Source: Tubulanus polymorphus (taxonomy: Eukaryota > Animalia > Nemertea). Taken from it: 64,000 nucleotides of DNA. The translations under genes were made by a program, and so were the position numbers. The stretch is taken from positions 24,152,150 to 24,216,149 of the forward strand of contig NC_134026.1 of assembly GCF_964204645.1 (NCBI RefSeq). The letters are read 5' to 3'. Position 1 is the first letter of the stretch. Every line of letters starts with the position of its first letter. Below the pieces are notes generated by a model. That model saw only the letters and a program-made list of their open reading frames with translations. It had not been told where the DNA came from and ran no database searches. Of the stretch, positions 24,455-63,303 are shown piece by piece.

Positions 24455-25932
24455 CTAACGAGATCAAAATTGCGTTGATTAAGCAATTTTGAAAATGTGC
24501 ATGCAAGGCCTTTATGATCAGTGACAGTCATTCCTCTATAATGCACAGGGACTGTTTGTGTCAAGTCCCTGTGCTATAATGTAGGCCCCTAATTTATAAT
24601 AATATGCGAACACACATTATACATCACGATTAATCGGCTGTGGTATGAAGCTTCTGCTATTGATTCAAAGAGAATTGAAAAACACAAAAAATTCAAATAT
24701 AGATGAACAATAACAGCTTAACGATTAATTCAATGACAAGGCCCATACAGTTATCACAAAAAAACCAATTTCGTCAGAGGTTTTTTTAAATTTATTTGTT
24801 GCCAAGAAGGTCGGGCTGTGTTGAAATCTAACGCTTTTAAGGCGCAATTACACCGATTCACGACCCAAAACAACGTCAAACAGTTAATGGGATACAATAT
24901 TCAATTCTCAGAAGTACGATTTTAGAGAAATTTCGAATAGAAGTCGAACAAAATCGCCGCTTTTTACCGATGCAATGCGTGATGTGTGAAGTGTCCCTAC
25001 CAACAAAGATGATTCCCGATTTCGGCCGAGCGTAAAAAACGGACGTTGGACTTTCACGGTACTTGATAATCTAATTATGTAATATTTTCTAATTTCTTTC
25101 TTATTTTTTTAAGGGGTTCATAGTTAAATTGTTAGATTTCTAAATGCTTGATTTAATGAATTGAGAAGTCACCTTCAAAATTAATAAAATTCCACGGTAA
25201 CAGTTAAGTTGACTTATTCTGCGGCTCGCGATTTCACTTCCTGTTTTGATTATTTAATGAAGATGAAAATTTCCTCAATAAAATATCATTATCGACCAAT
25301 GTTTGCCCTTTGATGAAATCATTGAATAATTGTTGAAAATGTACACAGTGATTATCTCATTACCACTTATTGCAGCATGCTGTAAGTATTCGTTATAAAC
25401 ATAAACGAAAGATTCCAGTTTCGAAAGTGTAAATTTACTAAATCTGCTGGAGAATGGAATTGACACTGACTGACAGCAGGGGTCTAGGCCCTGGATTTTA
25501 TTTCACTTCTAGTTGACCTCTGACTGTAGGAGGAATCGAATCAAGTATCTGCTGTATTGTAGATGTCAGAATTTTTTTATTGTAAAGTTTGATTAATTCA
25601 CTACTACTGCCACTACTGAAAGTGAAATCTACAATTTGATAAAAAGATTGAGATGAATTGGTTAGTTCAAAAAGAAAGGTTTTCAAATTTGATTTAAAAG
25701 ACTAGAAAGACTAGATAAATATGACTCAAAAGCCCTCTTTTGGCAAAATTTCTATTTTGATGTGACATTTTGTGGATAAAAGCTCAGTGAAGCGCGGCAA
25801 TCAATTATTGATACTTAACACATTTGAATATTGTTTTAAAATTTTTGTTATGTTACATTTTCCAGGGTTACTGGTTGAGAAACTGTGAATGGTTGAGTCA
25901 ATCAAGTTAACTGACCTGTCCCCTGCCACAGG

Positions 25933-35600: not shown

Positions 35601-38600
35601 CATCTCCACCCCATTCTTGAGTATCTACCAGTAGGATTACACTAAAAATGAAATATATACAGAAATATATAAGATTTTTATTACTGAAATAGCGAAACCT
35701 TAAATTTCAAAAGAAGCGGTAATGAATGCTCACCCATCATCCTGACCAGTATCATTCGTGTACAAAGCATCAAGAAAGTGATTAACATCCTGTAATTTTC
35801 TGGGGCTTGGTTGTAAACGTTTATTCTTGAGAGGACTTGTACCAACGGGCTGCGAAGTCTCCCCTGTGAAAAAAGAGGGTTAAGAGTGTAATTGACTCTT
35901 CAAACTTATAATGGGTCGTGATTAAATATGGCAAATTAAATGAGATGGTTAGACGAAATTACCTCTTAAATGAAGAGCTACTTGTTCTCCATACGGTAAC
36001 AATTCATAAACTGGCTTTTTATTGACAGTTCTTTTTTTCACCATACCACGGGAACAAAGGATGTTAAGCCTCCAAGTTGCAATACAAAACCCTATAGAAT
36101 GAGAGATTTTTGGGGATGTCACAAGAAGTTGATTGGTTCAATGATGTAGATTAGTAGAATCGAAATTGATTACTTACCAGTAGAATCAGCAGGTAAAAAC
36201 TTCTCTTCGCAAAGTTGTGCCGCTACCTTACACAATGATGCTTCTGACACCGCATAAACTTTCTTAGATGACCTAAAAAGGTAAACAAAATGATGTTATA
36301 CGTTACATTACATTATCCACATAATAACCACAGTTTTTGCAATTTCAGTTAAAGACCAGTTGCTCAAAAGTTGGTTAATAAGAGTTAACCAGTGGATAGA
36401 AAAAACAATGACATAGTGACACAATCCAAAGTCCATTGTCACTATTGAATTTATCCGCTCGTAATCTTTAAGCAAATTTTGAGTACCAGTAACTAGCCCC
36501 AGATATTTATCAAGGTTTTTCAAACTCACGGCTCACTAGTCGATTTTAATCTATCTTCTTTCATATTCAACAGAGTTAATAACAATGCAGGTGCTGATGA
36601 TACAAATCTTCCTTGTCCAGGTGGATCTGCAGCATACTTGTCTTTATCGTTGCAAATGTCTTTCAGTTTATCAGCTAATACATTTCCAATCTGAATGAAA
36701 CATTCTCATAGCTTTCACACAAATGGAATATGGCTTTGAAATCTGCATTTGAAATTGAAAGCTGTCAAATAACTTACCCCTTCCAACTGAGTAGCTTGTT
36801 TTACAGATTTCAGGGGTATGTCACATAAATCTAACGATACGATGGCACGTGATGTACACTCTGCAGCAGACTTAAAGTAATGTCTTGATCTCTGGAAACT
36901 TTCTAGGGGTATAAGTCCTCGGATAAACTTGTGTCTCTGAAAAATAGAAAAAACTTTTTTCTTCAATTTTTGCCAGATTGTGTATGTCATTGTCGACGTC
37001 CAAGACAATTTTTTTGAGGCGCAAGCACCTACGTGAAGTGAGCCTGTTATTCCAGCCTCGTATTCAGATATAGTGTGTACACACTGTATAGCTGCCTGTA
37101 GATACTGGTTGACATGAAATGTATAACTTAACATGACGGAGCGATGATAACTAACGTAAACGTTAGTATATAGCATCGGATACTGATACTCAAATTTCTC
37201 TGAAACAAAAACTCCAGGTTTCGTAAAAACTGAGTATATTACTGAGTAGGCTCGATTGTTCAAGTAGATATATAAAGTAAATGTCTGTGCATCGATTTGT
37301 TCAGGTATCATTTCAACTCACGATTGCATCATTCCACGATATCTAAAATTTAAAAATTCAAACTCAAATTTCTCTCAAACTAAAACCTGGGGCTTTCTGA
37401 AAATCGAGTATAATATTAAGGAAACTCTTTTCTTTAAGTTGATGTAAAGCGGATGTCTGTGCATTGATTTGATCATAATAAAAAACGCGTCATTTCAATA
37501 CACGATTGCATCATGGCGCGATATTCAGAAATTTAAATTTCAAAATCAAATTTCTCTAAAACTAAAACCTGAGGCTGTCTGAAAATCAAGTATATTAATA
37601 AGGAAACTCTATTCTTTAAGTTGATTTAAGGCAGATGTCTGTGCATTGATTTGATCATAGTAAAAAAATGCGTCATTTCAATACACGATTGCATCATGGC
37701 GCGATATTCAGAAATTTAAATTTTAAAATTAAATTTCTCTCAAACTAAAACCTGAGGGTTCCTGAAAATTAAGTATATTAATAAGCAAACTCTATTCTTT
37801 AAGTTGATTCAAGGCAGAAGTCTGTGCATTGATTTGATTATAGTAAAAAAACGCGTCATTTCAATACACGATTGCATCATGGCGCGATATTCAGAAATTT
37901 AAATTTCAAAATTAAATTTCTCTAAAACTAAAACCTGAGGGTTCCTGAAAATTAAGTATATTAATAAGCAAACTCTATTCTTTAAGTTGATGTAAGGCAG
38001 ATGTCTGTGCATTGATTTGATCATAGTAAAAAAAACGCGTCATTTCAATACACGATTGCATCATGGCGCGATATTCAGAAATTTAAATTTCAAAATCAAA
38101 TTTCTCTTAAACTAAAACCTGAGGGTTCCTGAAAAGTAAGTATATTAATAAGCAAACTGTAGTCCTGAGTTGATGTAAAGCGCATGTCTGTGCATTGATT
38201 TGTTCATAGTTAGATTGCCTGTTATTGCGACACACGATTGCATCATTGCGCGATATTCAAAATTTAAAAATTCAAACTCAAATTTCTCTAAAACTAAAAC
38301 CTGGGGTTTCCTGAAAAAACGATTATATCAATAAGATGACTCTATTCTTCAAGTTGATGTAAATAAGATGTCTTTGCATTGATTGGTTTATAGTAAGAAT
38401 TGGTGTTATTTCAATACTCGAAGCATCATTGCGCGAATATTCAAAAATTTAAATTTCAAAATTAAATTTCTCTAAAACAAGATGATTGATGAAAATATTG
38501 AAAATACGAACATATTGATAAACGGTTTAGCGATATTCACTGGAAATTATGTCGATGTAGTCTATTAATCAAAATCGCCCTCTTTCATAAGTTTAGTATT

Positions 38601-41600
38601 TTGCACCTATGTTTTGATTTAGAATCAGCAGTGCGCATATTACTGCCTCAACAAAAACGTGCAGAAAGTGAAATGTTGGTTATGCCAACGTGTATCCGCT
38701 CCTCTGATGACTTTTCTGTTGCTAGGTTTTCCGTTTAAGTCGCAAAATGGGGGTTTGAATTGAACTGTGAACAAATCAATTCTGGCAAATGTAGATAATG
38801 ACTTATACCAAGTACATTGTACTTTCCGATACTTCCAAAAATAAATCCAAATAAAAGCTCGCGTTCCGTTTTATGTTTTTTCTTTATTGAATATAAAAGA
38901 ATCCGTATAATGTAAACTTTTTAGTTTCAAGAGGCTGAGAGGTTTTAGTGTCAATGTGTCGGAATAATTGCTTTGCTTGAATTGTTATCCAAACTAGTCT
39001 TTAAGTGTTCACACTGATGAGCACTTTCCCCCAGGCTTAAGGCCAATATTCAAGAGTTATTCTAGTCTAATAATAATAATAATCCATTAACTATACTATA
39101 TACACTCTATTATTCTTATTTTCAATAATCGTAGTTCTCCCAGTCTAATGTCCTAGCGTATCATATAATACGTTGTATTATTCATTCAATTTATTTCTAA
39201 AAAAGTGAAACCCAAATCATAATATTCCCCTCCCCTCAATCTACGTTCCCGTCCTTGGGGACATTCATATAATAGCCATCATATACAACATATATTGAGC
39301 TGAAAAAAATAAAATCATTTTCCTAAAAAAGATCATATATCTAGCTGAAAAAATTAAACATTTTCCAAAAAGAGATCACTTAAGTAAAAGAGTGTCCCGC
39401 ACCAAAACCTGACGCGAGCTTTAGACCCCAGGAAAAAACACTTTATTGATGGAAATTCAATTACATGATAGCTGCAATGTTATATATATATAGTTCTTTA
39501 ATATATTGTGTACTTCGCTGCCATCAAAATCCGTGGTTCACGATCCTGATAAAAAGTGGCTCCGAATCCATTAACGCAGGGCCGGGAGTGTGATCAGAAA
39601 CGTCAGGATGTGTAGGTGTAATGAACTAGAATTCTTCGATTTTAAAGTCTAATCTATCGAAACATCTGGTTCTTCAAAATCAAAACTTCGATCCCCCGGT
39701 GTCTCCTCGGTACATAGTCCGTGCGCAATATTAGCCCTCTCCACTCGTTCCGCGATCTTACTTCTGGGGTCAGCTGACAGATTTTCCTTGATGTATTGCA
39801 TAATATAACGATGCAGGCGTTCTATTCCACGATCATTTAAATGCAACCCATCCAAACGATAAAATTCTTGTTTGACAGAGAATTGATCTCCTTTGTTTTT
39901 GCGTTTCTGACTCGTTTCGAAAATACGCTGAAATGAGACAACACAATCAAAATGCAGGCTATGAAAATATACCATTTTACAGATGTTAGCCGCCTTTTTG
40001 TTAGCGTACGGTACTAAACTTTGTCCTCTATTGTTAGATAACTTTTTTCTCTTTTTAAAGGATTATTTGTGATGTGTTCTATCATATTTAATTGGTTTGT
40101 AGGTGAATTTTGCCATGTAAGGAGCATTCAAACCATGGGAATACGTATCTTGTTTGTTTTCAGTTATCTAAAATCTACGAGCAATTATAGATGATAAATG
40201 ATTGCAAAAGTCAAAAATACTCTAGAAACCAGCAAATAAGGAGTAATTTTGAATTCTTCATTTTCGTAGCAAATTCAAACTTTGATTGACTTTGGAGGAG
40301 GAGCTTCTTAGTTATCAACTCACTGACCACAAGCCTGCTGAATTATGTAAACATAACAGCTGTGTGTTTTTTATCTTGTAAGCTGTTGTTAATTAATTGC
40401 CTTCACCGGCAATGGTTTTTACTCGGAGCAAAACTTGTTTACTGGGTAAAAAGGAAATATGATAAATTTTTAATTCGTTTCTTATAACTAGATTGATTTA
40501 CCCTCAAATTTTTAGGAAAATCGGACCTCAAATAAAAACAAGGAAGTTTTTTACCCATGTTCTTGCCTTTAATCAGAAATAATCCCCAGAATCATGGAAG
40601 GTGTCATTCAATTCCATCAGTTACAGATTTTTACTCGTTTTACTCGAATTATTGGTCGAGTAGTATACAGGGAGTAAAAAACAAGTTTTTTTTGTCTGGC
40701 CAGTCCAGGGGCCGTGCTGAGATACAAAAAATAACGAACTTCGAATCCCTACGCATGTGGCAAAAACTGGCCACGGGTTTTTTTATCATTCTCATGTCGC
40801 ATTGTTGCGAATTTGAGAAACACTAGAAATGTTTGAATGCTGCCAAAATGTCAAAATCCACCTACAGGCCAATGAAATATGATAAAACACATCACAAATA
40901 ATATTTAAAATAGAAATAATTACCAAACAATAGAGGACAAATGAAAGTACCCTAACAAAATGGTGGCTGGCAACTGTAACATGGTATTAGTTTACGGTAT
41001 ACATTTCATGAATATATATATTTACCTCAGTTTTCATGAAGGAAACCCTTTTGAACCTGGGTTCGCGCAGAAGCTTCTTCGTTAACCTATTAACTTTCTT
41101 CCGCTTCTGATCCTTCACCTTTGAATCATTTCGTGGAAATATCGGCAACAGAAGGATTTTGGTTGATGGCATCATCAGCGCGAGATAACCTAAAAAAAAC
41201 TAGTATCAAGAGGAATTTAGTCATTCGTCATTTAGTCATTTGAATTTTCTGTAATTTTCTGCATAAACTGTTGAGTAACTAACCTGGTATGCCTTTACTA
41301 TATCCTTTGGTTGAACATTTTCGTTTAAATCGTTAGTTCCGACCCATACTATGAGAACGTCCGCGTATTTTATGTCGTCAATTATTTTCTCACCGACGAT
41401 TCTACGCATTACGTCAATGCCTATTCCTGGCCAAAAATGTGTCTTATGATTTTTCGATTCCGGGAAAAAACGACCCATGCTATCACTTAAAAGTATCGTT
41501 TTCATTTTGAATGTGTGCGCGCTCATGTAAACCGGGTAATAATCTGGTAAGAACTGGTTTGAAATTGTTGTGCGCCTTAAACTAGGTAGAGCAGTCACTT

Positions 41601-44600
41601 TTGCTTACGCAACTGATAGTTAAGCAACATAAGATTATATAATATCAATGATTTATAAAAATGTTTATACGTCCATGAAGTAGTTTTGTTTAAAGATTCA
41701 ATGTTACATGTACGTATGATTGAATAATGAGGATGTAGTGGAAAAATCCCAACGTTTTAGTTAGCCACTTAATAATTTCAAGATCAGGATAATAATTGTT
41801 AGGTTCAAAGAAGTATATTGTTCATTTATTTTGCCGCATAACCAAAGCGTTGAAAATGATGGAATATAACATTCTATTTCACCTACACATGCTGTTTAAT
41901 GGGAATGTCTATTTGAGATTAGCTGACACTCTCAGATGAGAAGTGCGGACCGATAAAACACAGCGAAATTGGAATATAACATTCTATTTCACCTACACAT
42001 GCTGTTTAATGGGAATGTCTATTTGAGATTAGCTGACACTCTCAGATGAGAAGTGCGGACCGATAAAACACAGCGAAATGTGAGGAATAGATACAATCTA
42101 TGCCTAGTATAAAAACATTTATACTGTATAGTCCTTATGAATATTGATAGTGTACTACTAATTACAAAGAATGTCGTGCAGGCGTGAAATTCGTGTTAGT
42201 TGATACTTGGTTTTTCGGATTTTATGCCTGTTTGATGGTGATTTCAAAGTCACTTCTGCCAGAAGTTCGATGTACGATTTCCACATGATGTTAAATGTTC
42301 TTTTATCGCTGAAGGTTAAGTTCCATGCTCCTTTACCCTTGTGGCGAAATTTCGTCACGGGTTGGGGGCGGTCTGTACGCTACGCATGAACAAGTTTTTG
42401 GTGCCAAATGAATGGTCGTTTATATGTTTTAGTATCGATTTCATGGTTTCGTAGACTTTTGGACCATTTAAGTTTGGACGCTCCGCGTGACGTCACCCAC
42501 TGCGCGCAATGATCAAAACAAACACAAAGACAAACACGATGTGAAGTCTATTCATAATGAGTTGACGTGCGGCTTTTTCTCCACATCAAAGAGCAGCTAC
42601 TGCTGTGAGCTGTCAGATAGCTGCTACACAAATGATCCATCACAGATGTGCTGACCCACTGCAGCCCAGCGTCCACCAAGAGTGAATAACTACACACACA
42701 TAACTTGCATCTCCAACCACTCAGTTCTTTAATATTACCAGGGAGGTGGGAGTTCACTCCCACCTCCCTGATATTACACAAGTCAGTTTATAATGCAAAT
42801 GATTTGGTTGACAAATTCATTATAAATATCAGCGATGATAAATGAAGAAATCTCACACTTCGAATTTAAAATTATATGATCAAATTTATTATTACGAAAC
42901 CACAACGTTTCGGCTGTTGACTAACAGCCATCATCAGGTGGAATGACCAGAAAAACAAGTTACAAAGCATATAAACTCACAGGATCTAAAATAGAAGCAG
43001 TGTGTCAAAACTAAAGATAAACAGACCAAGCAATAAAACACCAAGGGGTACCGTGGAAACCACAGCAATTCTAAACAGTTCAGAGTAAAAACAAATTATG
43101 TAACTAAGTGAAGTGGACTGAAGAGGGTGGCGATAACAGAGTGACACATAGTGACATTAACCCAAATCTAATAAAGAATTGATGTGTCTGGATAATAATT
43201 GGTTATGTGGAGAAAAACCAGTATTTAAATTAGTAGATAAATTGGATTTCGAAAGTTTACATATTAGGGCTGATTCCACTATGTGTCTCTTATTAATATC
43301 TTTACAAGGATAAATAAGTTTCGAATTCTGAAAGTCAAATTGGTGATTAGTTGTAAAGACATGATTTGCTATTCCACTCTCAGGCTTTTGGTTGCGGATA
43401 TCTATGTTGTGTTCTTTAATACGCTGACTAAGATTACGTCCCGTTTCGCCGATGTACATCATATTACAGTCTTTACATGATGATTCTTCGTCTGAATTAG
43501 ATTCAAACTATGTAATATGGATGCATCCGCAAAAGAGAGTGACTGGGTAGAAGATTATCGTAACTTTTTACACACTTATAGCTATCTGTTTTCAGAGCCT
43601 ATTTTGATTTGTTAGTTGATACAAATTACCTGGCTCGAGATAAAGTTTTTCCTATCATTTACTTCGACTAAAGCATAATATATGTAACCGACCACCCAAA
43701 TCAAGTCAAGTTGAATATGGGTACAATGTCGAGATGAAAACATATCCATGGTTTCCACACGAGAAAAAAAAATAATCAACTCAAATTCAATCATGATAAA
43801 CCCGTCCTTGTTCCTCGAGTAAACAAAAATGATGCCTTGTTTCTCCGCAGCGGCCGGGTCAATTTTTGTAAAATTTGATAAAATTAGTAAACAGTTCATT
43901 TCTAGAGCTGCTGGGTTTGTTATGGTAAAATTGATCACGATTTTTAAAAAAAAGTAATGTATAGGGTAGATAGGCGGCCGGCCGGGTCAACTTCTAAGCT
44001 CAGCAGAGCGGGGAAACAAGGTATCAATTTTTTTAGGCTTAAGCTAGTAGTAAATATATAAATACCATTTAGCGAGACAAATGTATGATGACAGAATAAC
44101 TGCAGTCTAGATTATTTCATTAATTGTTTTGGACACTGATTATGTACCGTGCTGCTTTTCAAATAGGGAAGTTTCCAGTTACAGGCGCCAGAAAATAGAA
44201 ATTGTCGCCTTTCAAACGATAATTTTGGTGTCAGAGGGGGGATGGACGACAATAAATCGTGCCAAAGGTTTTACTTAAAAAAATAAATAAATCTATCCAA
44301 CAACGGTACCTGTGGGACCACCTCAAAATGACGCCTAACTGGAAACTATTACATCACATGGCAACGGGGTTATCTAATATTCAAAATGAATGATGATTCT
44401 GTTTCGCGTATTTTTAGAATCACTCATTTTAGAATCACTCTAATCCGTGTAATGTTGATAAATAAAAAAGTTTCGCAATCGAATATAATGTGATAAAATA
44501 TGGAAGCAAAACCGGCTACTGACTACACACTGACCGGCTACACAGCCACGGTCAGGTGCAATTTCCAGTAAAGAAAAAAGCATACACTCACAGTACATTA

Positions 44601-46471
44601 GCAGGGTTAGCGGTAAAGGCCCCTTATTCTAAGTTAGGTAAAAATCCTCTACCTTTTGAACGGAGTATGAAACAATAACTATAAGGCGGATTTAGTCATA
44701 TTTATTTATTCAATGTATCTATATTTTATTGTACGGTGTACATAAGGATACCATCAACATACCAATTACTTTATACTACATTCTCAAAGTTATCGCACAG
44801 CTCGAACATATCGCAAGTTTGAAACAGGTCACCGCACAGTTAAAATGACACTTGCTTGAATTTAGAATGTTTAAAATATTAAGTGCATTATTTCAAATTT
44901 CTTTTTTTTCGCATCGCTCAGTGAAATGTAACACAAAGTAAAAATAGTCCACCGTTCGACGATGTTCCAGTTCTAATTGAAAAATGTTACAAATTAAGAG
45001 TTCACTTATTCTATGAATTCCAACAACCCCTTATTCGAAGAAATTATCATATGATTTAGGGGATTTTTACCGAGGGAATGTTTTCTCACTACTCATTAGC
45101 AGAAGCTGTTCAGAAAGTATAAAAATGTGATCTTTAGTCAGCGCATCAAAGAACATAAGCCTGAAAGTGAGGTTGCTAATCCCATTTTATCACCAATTTG
45201 ACATAAGAACTCGTTATTTATACTTTAAAAAAATGCAGACACATAGTGGAATCGGCCCTATAGGCCTAAATATAAACGGGAGAAATTTAACTTATACAGC
45301 ATTCACTTTCATACTGGGTGAAATTTTCCACATAGTAATTATCGGTATCTATCTATACGTATATATCAACTTTTTATTGAATATCCGTTTATTCTACAAT
45401 GGACGTCATAAACTAGATTATACTCCTTGATTCTACTAATATGTGTTTTATCCTGTAATGGACCAATGGACGCTAATACGAAGGGACGTAAAAAAGCGGC
45501 GTTAGATCATGACCAGAGCTGTAGACGGATCATATGGCAACGTTGAGATGGCTTTCCGATGAGATGACAGTATTTTGCCAATTATAGCCCCGCCGAATAG
45601 CTCTGAGCTAAGAGCAATCAAGCTCATTGCGTTGAGTTCATAATCTTACTTTACTATTTCGATTGAAACTAAAATTAAATTTTCAGTTGCGTCAGATAGC
45701 TTCGCCGGGGACAGTAAAAGAACTGGGTACATGTTACATCACCCATGATTAGTGACGGAGCAAATAAGCAAAACTAGGAAGAAAACAGCGAGAGGTACCT
45801 CAGTAACCACAGTCTTAACAATCTTTGACTCCATCCAATACGAGTATTAAAGCCCATGATTGGACATTATGTAACCATGGACAAGCCTACAGCAACACCA
45901 AGCTGCCAACATCAACCGATAATCTTGTTGGTAACGCTATTTTTGTTAAAATTGATATACTAAAAGTGGATTGATTTTTCTTCATCGTGGATATATACTT
46001 TAGTATTGCATAACATAATTACATAGCGTTGCGTTGTTCCAATTTCCTTTACTTAAAACGTCAAGCGCATGTTGTTCTATAAGTAAAACCTGAGGTTTCT
46101 TGAAAATTAATGATGTCGGTGCAATAATCTGTTGTATTATTTCAATACACAAATGCATCTTTCGGCAATATTCAAAATTTAGAGATTCAACTAAAATTTT
46201 CTCTCAAACTAAAACCTGAAGCTTTTTGAAAAATGGACTTTGTTGAGCCTATCCTCTCTAAAGTGATAAAGAATTGATTTGTTCATAGTTAGAATACATG
46301 TTATTTCATAGAGGATAGTTAGATACACCATCGATACACAATACACACTGTAAGGGCTGACTGTAGGTTTACAGTAGCCTACCAACCACTGGAAGAGTTT
46401 CATTTCAGGCGAATGAAATTACTCGGAGACTCCCACATACATTTTGGGGCGGCACCTCCTTTAAGTGTATA

Positions 46472-46541
<70 letters not shown>

Positions 46542-52500: not shown

Positions 52501-55500
52501 TACACAGGTACAATACTACACGAGAAAGGTTGCAATAGCCGTAGATATTTCAGAGCAAATGAAAGAGATGAGATGAAAGCCCAATTACTGGATGAAAAGC
52601 ATCCCCGTAAATTACAAGATAGACATATAAGTCAACTTACAAAAACACAGCTAGCTTCCGGCAATTGGTCAGGTGCAACCGTATCCAGTGATGTTTATAG
52701 AAGTATGCAACATGAAGCCAGAAGAGGACTTCAAATGAATGATGATGTGTGGAAGAGTCTTATTGAAATGAAACAAAAATTCAAAATTGAAGACGGACTC
52801 GATGATGAGGACTTACCAGGATATGTACATCATATTGGAATAGATCCGGCCACCATACATCTCTATTCCCACGCAGGAATTAAAGCATATCACGACCTTG
52901 CAACAAACTTTCCCATATATTATGATGCAACGGGGTCAATTATAAGGAAGCAAAAAGATGGACCAGATTACTACTATCATGCATTAGTTATTCACAATCC
53001 AAACGTCAAACCAAGCACTCCTTTAGCAATAGCTGAGATGATAACCCGAAGCCAAAATGCACCCACAATTATATCATGGTTGGCAAACATCCAGCACGCC
53101 GAAAAACGAATTTACGGGTACAAAAATACGATATCACCATGCATTATTTCAGCTGATAGAAGCGCAACATTTTTGTTAGCCTGGTCGAAAATGATTAATT
53201 CTGAAGACGTTGCAGATCACTTGCAGAGAGCGTACCGAATAGTAACCGGTGAAGCTTCAAAAGATGATTTAGGAAAAACCATATACCATATGGGATGTTG
53301 CCACCTTATGAAGGATGCTAAAGTAATGGTGAAAAAGTACTATGCAGCAAATTATCGACTCGGCATGTACATTTTCAGCGTACTGGCAAACGTCTCTAAC
53401 CTGAAACGTTTTGAAGATCTATACTACAGCATTTGTTACGTATTGATTTCACAAAAAAACTCACCAAAAACTGCTGAGCACATGCGTAGACTGCAAGCTG
53501 CACTGGAAACATTGGGCACAGAGGAAGAAGATGTTATAAAAAGCACCTATGTCGAACCCGAGGTAAAAAATAACGATGATGAGGGCGGGGATGAAGAGAT
53601 GTCTAATCGTTTGACAGAAGAAGAATTCATTCATTCGAATAAAACTTCGTCATTTGCTAAAATGGGTAAGAAAATACTGGAGAGGGTGCGAGCGGATATC
53701 TTGACAGAACGTGCAAACGAGTACATTGAGGAAAACCCTGCAGTATCAGAAACATTACTGAAGAAGATACAAAGTCATTACATTCCGACTATACCATTAT
53801 GGTCTAACATGCTGCGTGGGGACCTCAGACGACACTTCCCAAACGGAAGTTCGCAGCGTGAATTCGTTCGCCTCACCGGTACCGTACCCAAAACACAAGG
53901 ATTAATTGAAGAATTTTGGAAAGATGTCAAAGGTTCGATGACCAATTACATTCGCTGGCGCCCAGATGTATTTGTATCTAAAGCCAAAGATTTCCACGTA
54001 TCCAGGTGCAAAAAGTTTTTCATGCAGTCTACTTTAAAGAAAAAGACAAAGCGTGCTGGGAAACGATTAAAAAGTCTGACGAAAGAGAAGTGGCATCATA
54101 CGCCAACAGTTCTAGGCAGAAAAATGACTGGTAACAGTAACACAAAGAAAAAAGGCCACTTCCAAAAACCTCCCAAAACTCCAGTGACAGCTCGAAAAAA
54201 AACTGATTCCACAAAATTGCAGAAAAAGATCACTCAGGCAGGAGAAAAGAACAAAGCAATTGGCATTTCAACAAAACGGAAATTGACCTTCGAACCAATG
54301 ATCAAAAAAGTTAAGTTTGATAACTCGACACTCAACAGAAGTGACCACGAAAAGACGGTAAACGAAATAAACTTCCATCCAGGAAATACATCAACCCCTA
54401 AAATGAAGAAGGTGATCACATTTAACAAACCTAAAAATTCTGTTGAAGTCATCACAATATCACCTGAGCAACAAGAGAAAAACAACAAAAAGATCGTCTT
54501 CAGACACGCCTATCACTTGTCATTAAAGGTAATAGGAAGTATCTTGAATTCAAAGGAATGGCTAACCGATGAAGTGATTCATGCATATGCAGAAGCTGTT
54601 TTCTGTAATACTAATGCCAATTTCCTAACAAGTTTTTTCTACAGCGCCTGCTTGAATAAAAATCAAACCACAGATCCAGTGGTATATCTCAAAGATGACA
54701 TTACTGATAAAAAGTATCTTTTTATACCAATCAATAGATCTAATCATCATTGGGTATGCGTTATCATCAATACCGAAGCAAGGCATTTGATATATCTAGA
54801 TCCTACCAATAGAAGTGGCCCTACACTGCATGGACAACAGGCAATAAAGGTGATAAAGGATGTTTTTCAACGGAAAATGGGAGAAACCTTCATGGAAAAC
54901 TGGACAGAGCTATACGACCCACCAAGTAAAACTCTGCAAATTGACTTAAGCAACTGTGGTGTATACATTTGTGCATATTTCGAATCAATGTTGATATCAT
55001 CAAAATTGTCATTCAATCTCAGGGAAAACTGGACAGCATTAAAGTATCGGAAGAAGATGCATGCTATTCTGATGAAAGCCAAGTCTAATGCAGTTACCTA
55101 TTAAAAAGTCTAATGCAAAGTATCCACAAGGGTCAACAGTTTGTATGTTGGTTTGTTGAGGTTCTGAAATATCACTTTCCTATCAGGGTCGAGTCATCGG
55201 TCCACGCGATGCCAGTATACCTACTAGGGTCAATAGTTTGTATATGTCGGATTTTTTTAAAGTTCTGAAATATCAATTTTCCCTATGAGGGTCGAGTCAT
55301 CGGTCCACGCGATGCCAGTACCCACTAGGGTCATTGTATATGTCGGTTTATTGAGGTTCTCAAATATCAATTTTCCCTATCAGGGTCGAGTCATCGGTCC
55401 ACGCGATGCCAGTACCCACTAGGGTCATTGTATATGTCGGTTTATTGAGGTTCTCAAATATCAATTTTCCCTATGAGGGTCGAGTCATCGGTCCACGCGA

Positions 55501-58500
55501 TGCCAGTACCCACTAGGGTCAATAGTTTGTATATGTCGGATTTTTTTAAAGTTCTGAAATATCAATTTTCCCTATGAGGGTCGAGTCATCGGTCCACGCG
55601 ATGCCAGTATCCACTAGGGTCATTGTATATGTCGGTTTGTTGAGGTTCTGAAATATCACTTTTCCCTATGAGGGTCGAGTCATCGGTCCACGCGATGCCA
55701 GTATCCACTAGGGTCAATAGTTTGTATATGTCGGTTTATTGAGGTTCTCAAATATCAATTTTCCCTATGAGGGTCGAGTCATCGGTCCACGCGATGCCAG
55801 TACCTACTAGGGTCAATAGTTTGTATATGTCGGTTTATTGAGGTTCTGAAATATCAATTTTCCCTATGAGGGTCGAGTCATCGGTCCACGCGATGCCAGT
55901 ACCTACTAGGGTCAATAGTTTGTATATGTCGGTTTATTGAGGTTCTGAAATATCAATTTTCCCTATCAGGGTCGAGTCATCGGTCCACGCGATGCCAGTA
56001 TCCACTAGGGTCAATAGTTTGTATATGTCGGGTTTTTTTAAAGTTCTGAAATATCAATTTTCCCTATGAGGGTCGAGTCGTCGGTCCATGCGATGCCAGT
56101 ACCCACTAGGGTCATTGTATATGTCGGTTTATTGAGGTTCTCAAATATCAATTTTCCCTATCAGGGTCGAGTCATCGGTCCACGCGATGCCAGTATCCAC
56201 TAGGGTCAATAGTTTGTATATGTCGGGTTTTTTTAAAGTTCTGAAATATCAATTTTCCCTATGAGGGTCGAGTCGTCGGTCCATGCGATGCCAGTACCCA
56301 CTAGGGTCATTGTATATGTCGGTTTATTGAGGTTCTCAAATATCAATTTTCCCTATCAGGGTCGAGTCATCGGTCCACGCGATGCCAGTATCCACTAGGG
56401 TCAATAGTTTGTATATGTCGGGTTTTTTTAAAGTTCTGAAATATCAATTTTCCCTATGAGGGTCGAGTCATCGGTCCACGCGATGCCAGTACCCACTAGG
56501 GTCAATAGTTTGTATATGTCGGATTTTTTTAAAGTTCTGAAATATCAATTTTCCCTATGAGGGTCGAGTCATCGGTCCACGCGATGCCAGTACCCACTAG
56601 GGTCATTGTATATGTCGGTTTATTGAGGTTCTCAAATATCAATTTTCCCTATCAGGGTCGAGTCATCGGTCCACGCGATGCCAGTATCCACTAGGGTCAA
56701 TAGTTTGTATATGTCGGGTTTTTTTAAAGTTCTGAAATATCAATTTTCCCTATGAGGGTCGAGTCATCGGTCCACGCGATGCCAGTATCCACTAGGGTCA
56801 ATAGTTTGTATATGTCGGGTTTTTTTAAAGTTCTGAAATATCAATTTTCCCTATGAGGGTCGAGTCATCGGTCCACGCGATGCCAGTACCCACTAGGGTC
56901 AATAGTTTGTATATGTCGGATTTTTTTAAAGTTCTGAAATATCAATTTTCCCTATGAGGGTCGAGTCATCGGTCCACGCGATGCCAGTACCCACTAGGGT
57001 CAATAGTTTGTATATGTCGGGTTTTTTTAAAGTTCTGAAATATCAATTTTCCCTATGAGGGTCGAGTCATCGGTCCACGCGATGCCAGTATCCACTAGGG
57101 TCAATAGTTTGTATATGTCGGGTTTTTTTAAAGTTCTGAAATATCAATTTTCCCTATGAGGGTCGAGTCATCGGTCCACGCGATGCCAGTACCCACTAGG
57201 GTCAATAGTTTGTATATGTCGGATTTTTTTAAAGTTCTGAAATATCAATTTTCCCTATGAGGGTCGAGTCATCGGTCCACGCGATGCCAGTACCCACTAG
57301 GGTCAATAGTTTGTATATGTCGGGTTTTTTTAAAGTTCTGAAATATCAATTTTCCCTATGAGGGTCGAGTCATCGGTCCACGCGATGCCAGTATCCACTA
57401 GGGTCAATAGTTTGTATATGTCGGGTTTTTTTAAAGTTCTGAAATATCAATTTTCCCTATGAGGGTCGAGTCATCGGTCCACGCGATGCCAGTACCCACT
57501 AGGGTCAATAGTTTGTATATGTCGGATTTTTTTAAAGTTCTGAAATATCAATTTTCCCTATGAGGGTCGAGTCATCGGTCCACGCGATGCCAGTACCCAC
57601 TAGGGTCAATAGTTTGTATATGTCGGGTTTTTTTAAAGTTCTGAAATATCAATTTTCCCTATGAGGGTCGAGTCATCGGTCCACGCGATGCCAGTATCCA
57701 CTAGGGTCAATAGTTTGTATATGTCGGGTTTTTTTAAAGTTCTGAAATATCAATTTTCCCTATGAGGGTCGAGTCATCGGTCCACGCGATGCCAGTACCC
57801 ACTAGGGTCATTGTATATGTCGGTTTATTGAGGTTCTGAAATATCAATTTTCCCTATGAGGGTCGAGTCATCGGTCCACGCGATGCCAGTACCCACTAGG
57901 GTCATTGTATATGTCGGTTTGTTGAGGTTCTGAAATTTCAATTTTCCCTATCAGGGTCGAGTCATCGGTCCACGCGATGCCAGTACCCAATAGGGTCAAT
58001 AGTTTGTATATGTCGGGTTTTTTAAAGTTCTGAAATATCAATTTTCCCTATCAGGGTCGAGTCATCGGTCCACGCGATGCCAGTACCCACTGGGGCCAAT
58101 ACTTTGTATGTAATACGTACATTTGTTTTCTAAAGGTATAGATTTTCAGCTCAGAAGATTATTCCATGAGATGGTTTATGGCAAGAAGATGGTTTCAAGA
58201 AGATAATTCCATGGCAAAGTCTATCCCCGTATCATAGGCCCTTATAAGGGCCACTCATATGTCCAGAAAGAGCAGTTTGTGCAGCGCCTCCTCGCTTTGC
58301 TTCAAATTTTTACATTTAACTTCATATAAGTAGCCAACGAAAGGAGGTATAAACCGTGAGAAATTTTAATGAAACGTCATTTTCATTAATTATGTTTTAC
58401 GTGTTCGTGTTCGTTTTGAATATCGCTCCATGGTGCAAATGTTTATTGCAATACCACGTAAAAACCAATGCACAGACTTCTGCCTAACATCAACTTATAG

Positions 58501-61500
58501 ATATTAAAAAAAATTCAGATAAAAGAAATTCTTTTTGTCTTAAGTCAACTTAAAGAATAGAGTTTCCTGAATATTATACTTGATTTTCAGAAAGCCTCAG
58601 GTTTTAGTTTTAGAGAAATTTGATTTTGAATTTTTACTTTTTAAATATCGAGCCATGATGCAATCGTGTATTGAAATGACGCGTTTTTTACTATGATCGA
58701 ATCAATGCACAGACATCTGCCTTAAATAAACTTAAAGAATAGTTTCCTGAATACTATACTGGATTTTCAGAAAGCCTCAGGTTTTAGTTTAAGAGGAATT
58801 TGATTTTGAATTTTAAATTTCTGAATATCACGCCATGATGCAATCGTGTATTGAAATGACGCGTTTTTTTACTATGATCAAATCAATGCACAGACATCTG
58901 CCTTAAATCAACCTAAAGAATAGAGTTTCCTTATTAATATACTTGATTTTCGGAAAGCCTCAGGTTTTAGTTTTAGAGAAATTTTATTTTGAAATTTAAA
59001 TTTCTGAATATCGCGCCATGATGCAATCGTGTATTGAAATGACGCGTTTTTTTACTATGATCAAATCAATGCACAGACATCTGCCTTGAATCAACTTAAA
59101 GAATAGAGTTTCCTGAATATTATACTGGATTTTCAGAAAGCCTCAGGTTTTAGTTTTAGAGAAACATGATTTTGAATTTTAACTTTTTAAATATCGCGCA
59201 ATGATGCAATTGTGTATTGAAATGACGCGTTTTTTTACTATGATCAAATCAATGCACAGACATCTGCCTTAAATCATCTTAAAGAATAGAGTTTCCTGAA
59301 TATTATACTAGATTTTCAGAAAGCCTCGGGTTTTAGTTTAAGAGGAATTTGATTTTGAATTTTTACTTTTTAAATATCGTGCCATGATGTAATCGTGTAT
59401 TGAAATGACGCGTTTTTTACTATGATCGAATCAATGCACAGACATCTGCCTTAAATAAACTTAAAGAATAGTTTCCTGAATATTATACTGGATTTTCAGA
59501 AAGCCTCAGGTTTTAGTTTAAGAGGAATTTGATTTTGAATTTTAACTTTTTAAATATCGCGCAATGATGCAATCGCGTATTGAAATGACGCGTTTTTTTT
59601 ACTATGATCAAATCAATGCACAGACATCTGCCTTGAATCAACTTAAAGAATAGAGTTTGCTTATTAATATACTTGATTTTCAGACAGCCTCAGGTTTTAG
59701 TTTTAGAGAAATTTGATTTTGAAATTTAAATTTCTGAATATCGCGCCATGATGCAATCGTGTATTGAAATGACGCATTTTTTTACTATGATCAAATCAAT
59801 GCACAGACATCTGCCTTAAATCAACTTAAAGAATAGAGTTTCCTTATTAATATACTTGATTTTCAGACAGCCTCAGGTTTTAGTTTTAGAGAAATTTGAT
59901 TTTGAAATTTAAATTTCTGAATATCGCGCCATGATGCAATCGTGTATTGAAATGACGCGTTTTTTTACTATGATCAAATCAATGCACAGACATCTGCCTT
60001 AAATCAACTTAAAGAATAGAGTTTCCTGAATATTATACTGGATTTTCAGAAAGCCTCAGGTTTTAGTTTAAGAGGAATTTGATTTTGAATTTTAACTTTT
60101 TAAATATCGCGCAATGATGCAATCGTGTATTGAAATGACGCGTTTTTTTACTATGATCAAATCAATGCACAGACATCTGCCTTAAATCAACTTAAAGAAT
60201 AGAGTTTCCTGAATATTATACTGGATTTTCAGAAAGCCTCAGGTTTTAGTTTAAGAGGAATTTGATTTTGAATTTTAACTTTTTAAATATCGCGCAATGA
60301 TGCAATCGTGTATTGAAATGACGCGTTTTTTTACTATGATCAAATCAATGCACAGACATCTGCCTTAAATCAACTTAAAGAATAGAGTTTCCTGAATATT
60401 ATACTTGATTTTCAGAAAGCCTCAGGTTTTAGTTTTAGAGAAATTTGATTTTGAATTTTAATTTTTAAATACTGCGCCTTGATGCAGTCGTGTATTGAAA
60501 TATTGCATTTTTTACTATGATCAAATCATTGCACAGACATCTGCCTTAAAGAATAGAGTTTCCTTTATAATATTCTCGATTTTCAGAAAGCCTCAGGTTT
60601 TAGATTAATGGAATTTTATTTTTTGAAATTTAAATTTCTGAATATCGCGCAATGATGCAATCGTGTATTGAAATGACGCGTTTTTTTTACTATGAAAAAA
60701 TCAATGCACAGACATCTGCCTTGAATCAACTTAAAGACTAGAGTTAATATACTTAATTATCCTCAGGTTTGAGTTTAAGAGAAATTTGATTTTTAATTTT
60801 AATTTTTGAATATCGTGCCACGATGCTATCGTCTATTGAAATGACGCATTTTTTACTATAATCAAACCAATGCACAGACATCTGCTTTACATCAACTTTA
60901 CATCAGAGTGTGCTTATTAATATACTTAATTTTAAGGAAGTCTCAGGTTTCAGAGTTTCAGAGAAATCTCATTATGAATTTTAGCTTTTTAAATATCACC
61001 CAATGATGCAATCGTGTATTGAAATGACGCGTTTTTTACTATGATCAAATCAATGCACAGACATCTGCCTTAAATCAACTTAAAGAATAGAGTTTCCTGA
61101 ATATTATACTGGATTTTCAGAAAGCCTCAGATTTTAGTTTTAGAGAAATTTGATTTTGAATTTTAACTTTTTAAATATCGTGCCATGATGCAATTGTGTA
61201 TTGAAATGACGCGTTTTTTTACTATGATCAAATCAATGCACAGACATCTGCTTTGAATCAACTTAAAGAATAGAGTTTGCTTATTGATATACTTAATTTT
61301 CAGGAACCCTCAGGTTTTAGTTTTAGAGAAATTTAATCTTGAAATTTAAATTTCTGAATATCGCGCCATGATGCAATCGTGTATTGAAATGACGCGTTTT
61401 TTTACTATGATCAAATCAATGCACAGACATCTGCCTTAAATCAACTTAAAGAATAGAGTTTCCTGAATATTATACTGGATTTTCAGAAAGCCTCAGGTTT

Positions 61501-63303
61501 TAGTTTAAGAGGAATTTGATTTTGAATTTTAACTTTTTAAATATCGCGCAATGATGCAATCGTGTATTGAAATGACGCGTTTTTTTACTATGATCAAATC
61601 AATGCACAGACATCTGCCTTAAATCAACTTAAAGAATAGAGTTTCCTGAATATTATACTTGATTTTCAGAAAGCCTCAGGTTTTAGTTTAAGAGTAATTT
61701 GATTTTGAATTTTAACTTTTTAAATATCGCGCAATGATGCAATCGCGTATTGAAATGACGCGTTTTTTTTACTATGATCAAATCAATGCACAGACATCTG
61801 CCTTAAATAAACTTAAAGAATAGTTTCCTGAATATTATACTGGATTTTCAGAAAGCCTCAGGTTTTAGTTTTAGAGAAATTTAATTTTGAAATTTAAATT
61901 TCTGAATATCGCGCCATGATGCAATCGTGTATTGAAATGACGCGTTTTTTTACTATGATCAAATCAATGCACAGACATCTGCCTTAAATAAACTTAAAGA
62001 ATAGTTTCCTGAATATTATACTGGATTTTCAGAAAGCCTCAGGTTTTAGTTTTAGAGAAATTTGATTTTGAATTTTAATTTTTAAATACTGCCCCTTGAT
62101 GCAGTCGTGTATTGAAATATTGCATTTTTTACTATGATCAAATCATTGCACAGACATCTGCCTTAAAGAATAGAGTTTCCTTTATAATATTCTCGATTTT
62201 CAGAAAGCCTCAGGTTTTAGATTAATGGAATTTTATTTTTTGAAATTTAAATTTCTGAATATCGCGCAATGATGCAATCGTGTATTGAAATGACGCGTTT
62301 TTTTTACTATGAAAAAATCAATGCACAGACATCTGCCTTGAATCAACTTAAAGACTAGAGTTAATATACTTAATTATCCTCAGGTTTGAGTTTAAGTTTA
62401 ATTTTTGAATATCGTGCCACGATGCTATCATCTATTGAAATGACGCATTTTTTACTATGATCAAACCAATGCACAGACATCTGCTTTACATCAACTTTAC
62501 ATCAGAGTGTGCTTATTAATATACTTAATTTTAAGGAAGTCTCAGGTTTCAGAGTTTCAGAGAAATCTCATTATGAATTTTAACTTTTTAAATATCACGC
62601 AATGATGCAATCGTGTATTGAAATGACGCGTTTTTTACTATGATCAAATCAATGCACAGACATCTGCCTTAAATCAACTTAAAGAATAGAGTTTCCTTAA
62701 TGATATACTTAATTTTCAGGAACCCTGAGGTTTTAGTTTTAGAGAAATTTGATTTTGAATTTTAATGTTAACATGTTGAGCCATGATGCAATCGTGCGTT
62801 GAAATATTGCGTATTTTTTACTATGAACAAATGAAGACATCTGCTTTAAATCAACTCGAAGAATAGAGAAATTAATTTTCAGGTAGCATTGTTTTACTTT
62901 TATAGACATAGTTGAATTTTAACAGGCATAATTGATGTAAAATACATTTCGATGAAAATCTATGAAATTTACGAAAATCACTACACATTTTAATTATATA
63001 AAACAATTATTGATCACTCTTCTGCCCCGGTGACTTTATTGAATGATCGTCGTTTCGTCCGGTCAAAGTGTTAAGTTATACATTTCATGTCAACCAGTAT
63101 CTACAGGCAGCTATACAGTGTGTACACACTATATCTGAATACGAGGCTGGAATAACAGGCTCACTTCACGATAGTGGCGCAAGCCCCTGTTTAGCCTCTG
63201 CAGTTTTCAAAAATGTCTTGAACAATTTATTCATTGTGTACTTAAACAAAATATAAATCATGCTTATGCTTACCAAATCAACATAACCCCTTGTTTCGGA
63301 CAT
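32686..63303 (-). CDS. MUS81-like structure-specific endonuclease (HhH, winged helix, ERCC4) with a long disordered C-terminus and terminal CUE-like domain. Exon 1 at 63303-63274, exon 2 at 36936-36778, small exons to ~34779, last exon 34639-32686
   Basis: N-terminal HhH-like RAIVSL..IPLKSVKQATQLEGIGNVLADKL. ERCC4 motifs VILLVDTQE, LKTGDYQW, LVERKRGDDLANSIVDGRF..Q..KM, YLIEG, FSVIRTQDI. Exon 1 MSETRGYVDL|gtaagc joins in phase 0 to ttttcag|RHKF. Boundaries of the internal small exons are approximate. Confidence 0.82.
37027..37133 (+). repeat. Left terminal inverted repeat (107 bp)
   Basis: Reverse complement of 63069-63175. Confidence 0.95.
37310..38480 (+). repeat. Left subterminal tandem array, ~182-bp monomer, ~6 copies
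   Basis: Recurring CACGATTGCATCATGGCGCGATATTCAGAAATTTAAA...AAACTAAAACCTGAGG...GATGTCTGTGCATTGATTTG. Confidence 0.93.
39649..41505 (-). CDS. SGNH/GDSL-type hydrolase (transposon cargo); exons 41505-41284, 41199-41026, 39927-39649 (alternative upstream ATG at 41526)
   Basis: Block I ILLSDSM, block III VWVGTND, P..KILLLPIFPR and block V DGLH. Both introns are phase-0 GT-AG and give an uninterrupted frame. Confidence 0.8.
41860..42079. repeat. Perfect tandem duplication, 2 x 110 bp
   Basis: TGGAATATAACATTC...ACACAGCGAAAT repeated at 41860 and 41970. Confidence 0.92.
42850..43480 (-). mobile_element. 5'-truncated Penelope-like retroelement (GIY-YIG endonuclease C-terminus plus 3' region)
   Basis: CKDCNMMYIGETGRNLSQRIKEH...IANH...H.FDF...RHIVESALI...N.NTG (ORF 43157-43462), followed by a hammerhead motif. 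Element ends are approximate. Confidence 0.85.
42900..42941 (-). ncRNA. Minimal type I hammerhead ribozyme (Penelope-associated)
   Basis: Minus strand reads CCAC-CUGAUGA-U-GGCUGUU-AGUC-AACAGCC-GAAA-CGUU-GUGG: stem I, intact core, 7-bp stem II and palindromic ACGU stem III. Confidence 0.85.
43822..44038. mobile_element. Degenerate MITE; same terminal family as 48598-49674
   Basis: AAAAATGATGCCTTGTTTC ... GAAACAAGGTATCAATTTTTTTAGGC followed by TTAA; internal GCGGCCGGGTCAA repeats. Confidence 0.45.
46080..46400 (+). repeat. Degenerate internal copy of the 182-bp monomer followed by a TIR-like relic
   Basis: AAAACCTGAGG, TTTCTCTCAAACTAAAACCTGA and ATTGATTTGTTCATAGTTAGA match the monomer. ACACACTGTAAGGGCTGACTGTAG resembles TIR ACACACTGTATAGCTGCCTGTAG. 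Confidence 0.6.
46476..46540. repeat. (TA)n microsatellite, ~32 units
   Basis: Pure TA run. Confidence 0.98.
46690..55104 (+). CDS. Multidomain transposase, ~1851 aa, 2 exons (46690-46968, 49828-55104): PHD finger, USP (peptidase C19), NOF/MULE-like DDE core, Ulp1 (peptidase C48)
   Basis: PHD YCYCQEP..MVECDYCGNWFH..C..CSSC. USP Cys box GIVNIKNTCWLISAIQ and His box VIVHRG...SGHYVTY..FDDS. DDE core YYDATGS, ISADRS, GCCHLMK, TQGLIEEFW. Ulp1 WLTDEVI, NHHWV, YLDP, QIDLSNCGVYIC. The long ORF lacks an initial ATG, but tttgtag|GAA at 49828 is in frame with CCG|gtaagt at 46968. Confidence 0.87.
48598..49674. mobile_element. Degenerate non-autonomous DNA element (TTAA-flanked left end, Kolobok-like) in the transposase intron
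   Basis: TTAA|GGCAAAAAAATGATACCCTGTTTC ... GAAACAAGGTATCATTTTAGGCC inverted termini with subterminal CCGACCG-type repeats. Confidence 0.4.
48790..48830 (-). pseudogene. tRNA-derived fragment (3' half; SINE or pseudo-tRNA)
   Basis: Minus strand GCGTAGGTTCAAGTCCCGAC contains a T-loop/B-box. No complete cloverleaf. Confidence 0.35.
55130..58110 (+). repeat. Minisatellite, 94-101-bp unit, ~30 copies, directly after the transposase stop codon
   Basis: Unit GGGTCGAGTCATCGGTCCACGCGATGCCAGTACCCACTAGGGTCAATAGTTTGTATATGTCGG...TTCTGAAATATCAATTTTCCCTATGA; period 101 (e.g. 57059 to 57160) with shorter variants. Confidence 0.97.
58400..62880 (-). repeat. Right subterminal tandem array, ~182-bp monomer, ~24 copies, inverted relative to the left array
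   Basis: Recurring ATCAATGCACAGACATCTGCC at 181-183-bp spacing; reverse complement of the 37310-38480 monomer. Confidence 0.96.
63069..63175 (-). repeat. Right terminal inverted repeat (107 bp)
   Basis: Reverse complement of 37027-37133; followed by TSD GGCGCAAGC. Confidence 0.95.

Follow-up and report, generated by a model that had tools for sequence, protein, structure and literature searches.

The target duplication of the Drosophila foldback element FB is 9 bp long. Rehavkus elements, a Repbase group set within or next to MuDR/MULE and placed in MuDR by one account (PMC4455052), are described as having a 9-bp target site duplication (TSD), terminal inverted repeats (TIRs) of 26-400 bp, one open reading frame (ORF), a PHD finger and a minisatellite before the 3' TIR, with insects and annelids as hosts and lengths of 4.9-18.5 kb (10.7 kb for Rehavkus-1_HR, 9.5 kb for -1_TC, 18.5 kb for -3_TC, 9.1 kb for -2_Nvi, 5.9 kb for -1_DY and 4.9 kb for 1_AP; PMC6446971). 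Their inverted termini are reported to carry up to 50 tandem repeats in variable number (bioRxiv 2024.12.02.626372). Repbase entries for the family are few, from insects and an annelid, and the account that lists them cites no activity test where it treats Rehavkus (PMC6446971). Arthropod MULEs are given as 1.4-10 kb long (PMC13359780). For Muta1, a MULE of Aedes aegypti, cutting is reported to proceed through a hairpin on the flank and to need a Trp, and more subterminal repeats to give more binding and more excision; over 90% of its excisions in yeast are described as precise (PMC5499845). IS256 is reported to be the bacterial kin of Mutator (bioRxiv 2021.09.26.461848).

We analysed a stretch of 64,000 nucleotides from the palaeonemertean ribbon worm Tubulanus polymorphus (NC_134026.1, positions 24,152,150 to 24,216,149; hereafter the window), in which an element of 26,149 bp (37027-63175) is bounded by inverted repeats and a 9-bp target duplication (Table 1). 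With a probability of roughly 0.8, we read it as a coding-intact, recently moved cut-and-paste foldback transposon related to Mutator, likely a large Rehavkus-type variant, whose transposase is predicted to read histones and to strip ubiquitin and SUMO. The original prediction had already proposed a Mutator-type foldback transposon here, and that reading gains support from intact coding sequence and from ends that recur in multiple copies with different flanks; its span of 37018..63184 has to be trimmed, as it takes in both TSDs. The predicted exact TSD was confirmed, the 9-mer standing at both junctions and nowhere else in the window when both strands are checked (two occurrences; chance per position ~6e-7). 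So was the near identity of the 107-bp TIRs, which agree at 104 of 107 positions: the 3 mismatches lie at positions 3-5, and the remaining 102 contiguous bases are identical. These mismatches (within 37027-37031 and 63171-63175) are also seen at other loci, in left-type and right-type ends of sequencing run X1, and their recurrence makes the asymmetry of the ends a family trait rather than decay. MULE/MuDR elements are recognised at their ends by TIRs and a target duplication of 8-11 bp, and 107-bp TIRs with an exact 9-bp TSD are what is found here. The 26.1 kb are made up of ~9 kb of array, 5.6 kb of transposase exons, a 2.9 kb intron, a 1.9 kb span for a gene encoding an SGNH hydrolase, and 6.6 kb of other sequence. 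Scans for tRNA genes and against Rfam returned no match.

Table 1. Features of the element and of the interrupted host gene, in window coordinates.
Feature	Position	Strand	Basis or remark
Left 9-bp TSD	37018..37026	.	exact match to 63176-63184
Left TIR, 107 bp	37027..37133	+	TIR comparison; read depth in X4 ~44 times that of host flank
Left subterminal array, 183-bp units, ~7 (first decayed)	37190..38478	+	TRF; 244-bp exact match to right arm
SGNH hydrolase exon 3 (D-x-x-H block, stop)	39649..39927	-	identical to P0167
Decayed MITE-like insert in SGNH intron 2	39950..41006	.	arms ~180 bp, 77% complementary
SGNH hydrolase exon 2	41026..41199	-	GT-AG splice model
SGNH hydrolase exon 1 (Ser block, Gly, GxND block)	41284..41526	-	probable start codon
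Truncated Penelope-like fragment (GIY-YIG piece, hammerhead-like core)	42900..43507	-	PF01541 E 2e-4; putative label, outer limits approximate
Stray decayed 183-bp unit, upstream of transposase gene	46076..46289	+	score 119 vs shuffle maximum 50
Predicted first coding exon of transposase gene, 93 aa, phase 0	46690..46968	+	GT/AG join keeps frame
Main transposase exon, 1758 codons (PHD - USP - transposase core - Ulp1)	49828..55104	+	ORF and Pfam
PHD finger, Tyr/Met/Trp cage positions	50794..50937	+	PF00628 E 7.8e-6
USP-type deubiquitinase domain	50968..51897	+	Pfam UCH/USP; Cys390/His649/Asp666 present
Transposase core: WRKY-like zinc finger, DDE (D1033, D1110, E1361), H1159, W1325	52225..54030	+	alignment, model
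Ulp1/C48 SUMO-type protease domain	54556..55047	+	Pfam; His1641/Asp1658/Gln1704/Cys1710 present
101-bp minisatellite, 30.3 copies	55119..58109	+	TRF-type array scan; directly after transposase stop codon
Right subterminal array, 183-bp units, ~24	58414..62868	-	TRF; contains recent 9-unit-offset duplication
Right TIR, 107 bp	63069..63175	-	TIR comparison
Right 9-bp TSD	63176..63184	.	exact match to 37018-37026
Next host exon, ERCC4-domain (MUS81-like) gene, left of element	36778..36936	-	weak matches
Predicted first coding exon of interrupted host gene, 10 aa	63274..63303	-	ATG, GT donor, phase 0 fits exon 2; putative

The insertion point is likely 89 bp into intron 1 of an ERCC4-nuclease gene. 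Taking out the element and one duplicate leaves what would be a 179-bp intron, against ~75-135 bp for six neighbouring introns. We also considered an insertion splitting a coding exon, and rejected it: the reading frame that crosses the empty site lacks exon boundaries, and the left flank has a clean acceptor 81 bp in. Pfam matches of the host gene are weak (HHH_8 E 0.03; later exons ERCC4 E 1e-4 and 3e-3), and host exons searched one by one against the PDB yielded at best a weak Mus81 match (E 1.1), so that "MUS81-like" is a soft label. The last exon of the host gene (32686-36936 and 63274-63303, both on the minus strand) is unusual, being Ser-rich, 674 codons long and free of Pfam matches. 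One of the gene's introns holds a 44-bp palindromic repeat (36356-36399), covered by >1,000 reads of run X4 where single-copy DNA has ~8; it is a small element of very high abundance and has no relation to the transposon. Elsewhere in the window are an ordinary host gene with short introns, resembling the ZRANB1/TRABID deubiquitinase (25915-28707, plus strand; RanBP zinc fingers, AnkUBD), a 278-bp self-complementary element (6347-6624, 91%) and a fragment matching the RNase H1 N-terminal domain (Cauli_VI; 17825-18693).

We compared the locus with four sequencing runs, X1, X2, X3 and X4, of which X2 and X3 come from one sample. In X1, another animal carrying the same species label, the element is absent from the insertion site: a contig of 13,637 nt with a flat depth of 39.1, the only one in X1 to cover the last host bins, agrees with 34700-37030 apart from two differences and then continues for 1,010 letters that are not TIR. 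Its three extra matching bases past the host flank fit the right flank. The empty site that the original prediction had suggested looking for thus appears to be present, the contig leaving the left flank at the junction into non-TIR sequence, and the predicted recent activity is upheld, because absence from the site in X1 means that the element moved recently. If excision is as precise as that of Muta1, the empty site could be ancestral or the product of an excision; either shows mobility. It is scarcely credible that a repeat was placed at this locus by faulty assembly: long arrays do pose difficulties for assemblers, and the filled junction is not among the reads and contigs listed for the four runs, but a misjoin would not create an exact 9-bp duplication directly abutting both TIRs, and removing the element restores an intron like its neighbours in length. 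Moreover, X1 and X4 both differ from the window at 37009 and hence represent other haplotypes.

Other copies, for which a search had also been proposed, are indicated by TIR ends on several different flanks, comprising other X1 contigs with a TIR end on different flanks of 3 kb and 4.6 kb, a further one in X2/X3, and right-type ends on unlike flanks in 4 contigs. X1 holds 0.73 of the sampled words (31-mers) of the transposase region, so a near-identical region likely lies elsewhere in X1; this speaks for another copy of that region only, and the autonomy proposed in the original prediction is no more than putative. Raw X4 reads cover the host flank to a depth of 7.8, taken from 26 of 28 host bins after leaving out two over an unrelated repeat, and exceed this depth ~44-fold over the TIR bin and 23-fold over the left subterminal bin; the flank depth implies ~249 Mb, versus a reported genome of 313-358 Mb (PMC8468679). 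Of the ~360 X4 reads covering the TIR start, 241 stop at the start of the left TIR on one common outer flank (agreement 0.92), a flank that is also present in X2 and does not occur in the window. Much of the 44-fold depth therefore reflects one amplified context and not independent jumps; on a rough reading, ~30 ends may belong to that context and ~ten elements may be independent. The left TIR end appears to be amplified ~30-fold within some other repeat or array, and seems to have no matching group of right ends. At 37089 the window TIR departs from the form that prevails in each of the four runs.

Inside each end lies the same satellite in opposite orientation, as had been predicted, with a unit of 183 bp and ~7 and ~24 copies. 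By TRF the left array has 6.4 copies (37308-38478) and the right one, which is inverted, 21.1 plus 2.4 (58539-62868). Within the 244-bp exact match a left and a right unit are 100% identical, and the four outer units on the right reappear nine units further in at 98-100% identity; we conclude that the arms exchange sequence or have undergone recent duplication. The 101-bp minisatellite is a third array, missing from the earlier description, and the TIR has no word of at least 9 bases in common with either array unit. Unequal inverted arrays at both ends raise the question of a composite in which two non-autonomous foldback elements mobilise the DNA between them, as in the Drosophila Ising TE, and composites of this kind have been described (PMC6431247). 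Such an origin is largely refuted here and very improbable: each arm has an outer TIR only, with no inner end and no TSDs around it, one TSD pair encloses the whole unit, and the enclosed gene is itself a transposase of the type that matches a 9-bp TSD.

The second intact gene of the original prediction is likewise real, and lies on the minus strand within the element ends. Its three exons, with GT-AG joins, encode an SGNH hydrolase of 231 aa in which the Ser, Gly, Asn and Asp-x-x-His blocks are present, and the public T. polymorphus protein LOC141906112 is identical over its 192 aa and has the same two splice joins, although its model starts 39 codons later, after the Ser block. The protein resembles PAF acetylhydrolase (E 6e-6). 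We consider the esterase to be, on balance, a passenger of long standing that the element has kept intact, and not host DNA caught in one copy. The decay of the MITE-like insert nested in its second intron (77%) makes the lineage old, even if the insertion itself is recent. Two further stretches, 43800-44045 and 48590-49680, have a common terminal motif of ~22 bp in inverted orientation (by eye) and are likely more MITE-like inserts, the second of them inside the transposase intron; a 110-bp sequence is duplicated exactly in tandem at 41860-42079, and 46475-46540, 150 bp upstream of the predicted transposase start, is a run of (TA)33.

An alternative account of this left part treats the copy as a one-off, with a family proper of ~17 kb running from near 46000 to the right end and 9 kb on the left specific to this copy or sub-lineage, the SGNH gene, the nested repeats and the array growth all being limited to this copy or to a small sub-lineage. 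The stray decayed 183-bp unit just upstream of the transposase gene lies where an older left arm would, ~9 kb of the element is tandem array and 6.6 kb is other interior with nested repeats, and the right array was enlarged by its nine-unit-offset duplication. Against this, an inner decayed TIR sought in the element interior gave a best score of 31, below the shuffle maximum of 37; the SGNH protein cluster of LOC141906112 has 7 sequences, be they copies or isoforms; and the interior has a CpG observed/expected ratio of 0.97, like the element as a whole (~1.0) and unlike the host flank (0.66-0.73) and its genes. We regard this account as possible but doubtful, and the 26-kb form with its passenger gene as no more than a candidate for the usual form of the family.

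The transposase gene departs in one respect from the prediction of an uninterrupted gene. Its main ORF has no stop over 1758 codons, as predicted; however, it starts flush with an AG acceptor, and an upstream exon of 93 codons splices to it in frame (46968/49828) to give a predicted protein of 1851 aa, so the gene likely has one intron. All three sets of catalytic residues (USP, DDE and Ulp1) are present, and the USP and Ulp1 domains are predicted from their sequence to remove ubiquitin and SUMO tags. The disordered N-terminal region (49915-50640, aa 30-270) contains five spaced (T/S)Y(A/D)D repeats, possibly short binding motifs. The best PDB matches of the PHD finger are PHF23, Spp1, PHF13, DIDO, TAF3 and BPTF, whose PHD fingers we take to be of the H3K4me3-reading class; in the alignment of this domain, the cage Trp position is kept in 19 of 20 sequences and the Tyr position (Tyr or Phe) in 13 of 20.

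Pfam found no transposase family in the core at E<=0.05, and none in the 34 of 150 relatives scanned at E<=0.001; a PDB sequence search with the core profile gave no real match, and word-index protein searches with the core returned nothing or 2 proteins. A structure model of the core (pLDDT 88, pTM 0.83) has the DDE triad in an RNase H-like core with a helical insertion, the arrangement by which MULE/MuDR transposases are recognised. In a wide structural search the best match of this model was ISCth4 (Z 12.0, rmsd 5.3, 238 residues aligned), with Hermes at 9.8 and the P element at 9.3, and its N-terminal part matches WRKY/Aft2 (Z 5.2-5.5). Foldseek returned nothing for the core at E<=0.001, its sub-threshold rows being led by Hermes, ISCth4 and the P element. 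By Atlas features the core is nearest to MULE clusters (0.94), which we treat as a lead.

Core relatives number 782 at E<=0.001, the top match being 36% identical. We aligned the core with the 66 relatives spanning it out of the best 150 of the 782 (67 rows): the D1033, D1110, E1361 triad is kept in 59 of the 67 rows, H1159 in 66 and W1325 in 62. W1325 stands 36 residues before E1361, in keeping with the conserved Trp of MULEs, and judged by its position it is probably equivalent to W401 of Muta1. The (C/D)xxH motif, which in MULE/MuDR transposases comes after the second Asp, has its Cys in 63 of 67 rows and its His in 66, and here, as in P0004, Gly replaces the Cys.

The Gly is one reason to ask whether the element is real and mobile and yet not self-sufficient, its gene silent or its transposase impaired, so that a related element moved it and most other ends are amplified fragments. 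Most X4 TIR reads do lie on one flank, right-type ends are absent from the six best-supported X4 loose-end rows (the smallest with 63 reads), and Drosophila NOF-FB is said in one account to be possibly moved by other transposases (PMC8834629). Yet 1758 open codons, three catalytic sets and an in-frame upstream exon would be improbable without recent selection, and P0004 is the sister sequence in the tree (support 0.997), so that the Gly is a trait of the lineage rather than decay; we therefore hold dependence on a related element to be unlikely.

Domain order was surveyed in 151 proteins, namely the query and the best 150 of its 782 relatives: 105 have the core only (many are fragments), 31 have a USP domain and 13 have both proteases, 12 of these being among the best 150 relatives. 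The USP domain follows the core in 29 of the 31 proteins that carry it, and the order PHD-USP-core is found in two, this protein and P0073 of Apostichopus. Among 30 relatives looked up, those with a name come from Apostichopus, Holothuria, Actinia, Adineta and one bacterial bin, and most are without a name. Of P0038 and P0102, one has a Macro domain after the core and the other is filed under the bacterial bin (Sedimenticola), the relative in that bin being likely animal DNA. Scans for related loci found none for P0008 and none in viral contigs; for P0006 the scan gave one USP-only locus (L001), which has no tblastn match to P0001 at E<=0.01.

The anatomy of the element, taken with Muta1, leads us to a cut-and-paste mechanism with a 9-base stagger. 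By analogy with Muta1, the WRKY-like finger would bind the terminal repeats, the 183-bp arrays would add binding sites such that a 26-kb unit could still pair its ends, and the DDE core would cut via a hairpin on the flank and insert with a stagger of 9 bases. The remaining domains suggest a more tentative proposal, plausible but somewhat short of an even chance: the PHD finger may read H3K4me3 and steer insertion to the starts of active genes, and the proteases may shield the element or its transposase from silencing or turnover that depends on ubiquitin or SUMO. Insertion-site evidence for targeting consists of one site, 89 bp into the likely first intron, and a single site is no evidence. 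A bolder version, which we think rather unlikely, would have an undescribed, animal-wide clade of giant foldback elements whose transposase is a chromatin machine, landing by H3K4me3 as RAG2 does for RAG1, erasing ubiquitin and SUMO marks to evade silencing and reshuffling its modules from lineage to lineage, with the esterase gene as a constant second part; this copy would be its intact type specimen.

The 26-kb copy is complete, polymorphic and intact in its coding sequence, and offers the two ends as well as the enzyme needed to assay transposition directly. Transposition efficiency is reported to fall above ~6 kb of cargo (PMC6431247), and the element is a test of the upper size limit of natural cut-and-paste units in eukaryotes. 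It also makes testable the idea that transposases bring along a deubiquitinase and a SUMO protease of their own to counter silencing by the host. Finally, it is a transposon that seeds two satellites and lengthens an intron of a DNA-repair-type gene from a likely 179 bp to 26 kb.

Set against described systems, the element does not bear out the expectation that it was probably undescribed, since a 9-bp TSD, a PHD finger, a minisatellite and repeat-bearing inverted termini together are those of the published Rehavkus elements, known up to 18.5 kb. The likeness extends to the 107-bp TIRs, within the 26-400 bp of Rehavkus, to the PHD finger in the transposase (PF00628 E 7.8e-6), and to the 101-bp minisatellite before the 3' TIR and the 183-bp subterminal arrays in the inverted termini. 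The element differs in its length (26.1 kb versus 4.9-18.5 kb), in having a second, SGNH gene inside its ends where a single ORF is the descriptive trait of Rehavkus, in the USP and Ulp1 domains, which the consulted passages on Rehavkus do not mention (PMC6446971, bioRxiv 2024.12.02.626372), and in its nemertean host, with relatives in sea cucumbers, an anemone and rotifers rather than insects and annelids. None of the 30 relatives looked up bears the name Rehavkus or NOF. Because of the second gene, and because the likeness is one of anatomy, we file the element as Rehavkus-like and not as a member. Literature searches on the combination of two proteases returned Helitron papers or nothing; Repbase Reports and subscription journals, which lie outside that search, may describe these domains.

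The element resembles Muta1, a type 2 foldback element, in its DDE triad with conserved Trp, its TSD (8-9 bp in Muta1) and its subterminal repeats, whereas Muta1 is described as 3.2 kb long with 12-bp repeats inside a 145-bp TIR (PMC5499845) and the units here are of 183 bp, in arms of 1.3 and 4.5 kb, around a protein with PHD, USP and Ulp1 domains. With Drosophila FB, FB-NOF and Tetris it has in common inverted tandem-repeat arms of unequal length around a core, and the TSD of Tetris is given as 8-10 bp; FB and Tetris, in contrast, are described as lacking a transposase, and FB-NOF is called non-autonomous (PMC4079207). ISCth4 of the IS256 family (PDB 6xg8), the best structural match over its 238 aligned residues, is bacterial, ~400 aa long and 9% identical, and has no accessory domains. 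The element is thus most likely, judged by its anatomy, an unusually large Rehavkus-type variant rather than a new class; what is new here is its size, the position of USP before the transposase core, the SGNH passenger and the nemertean host.
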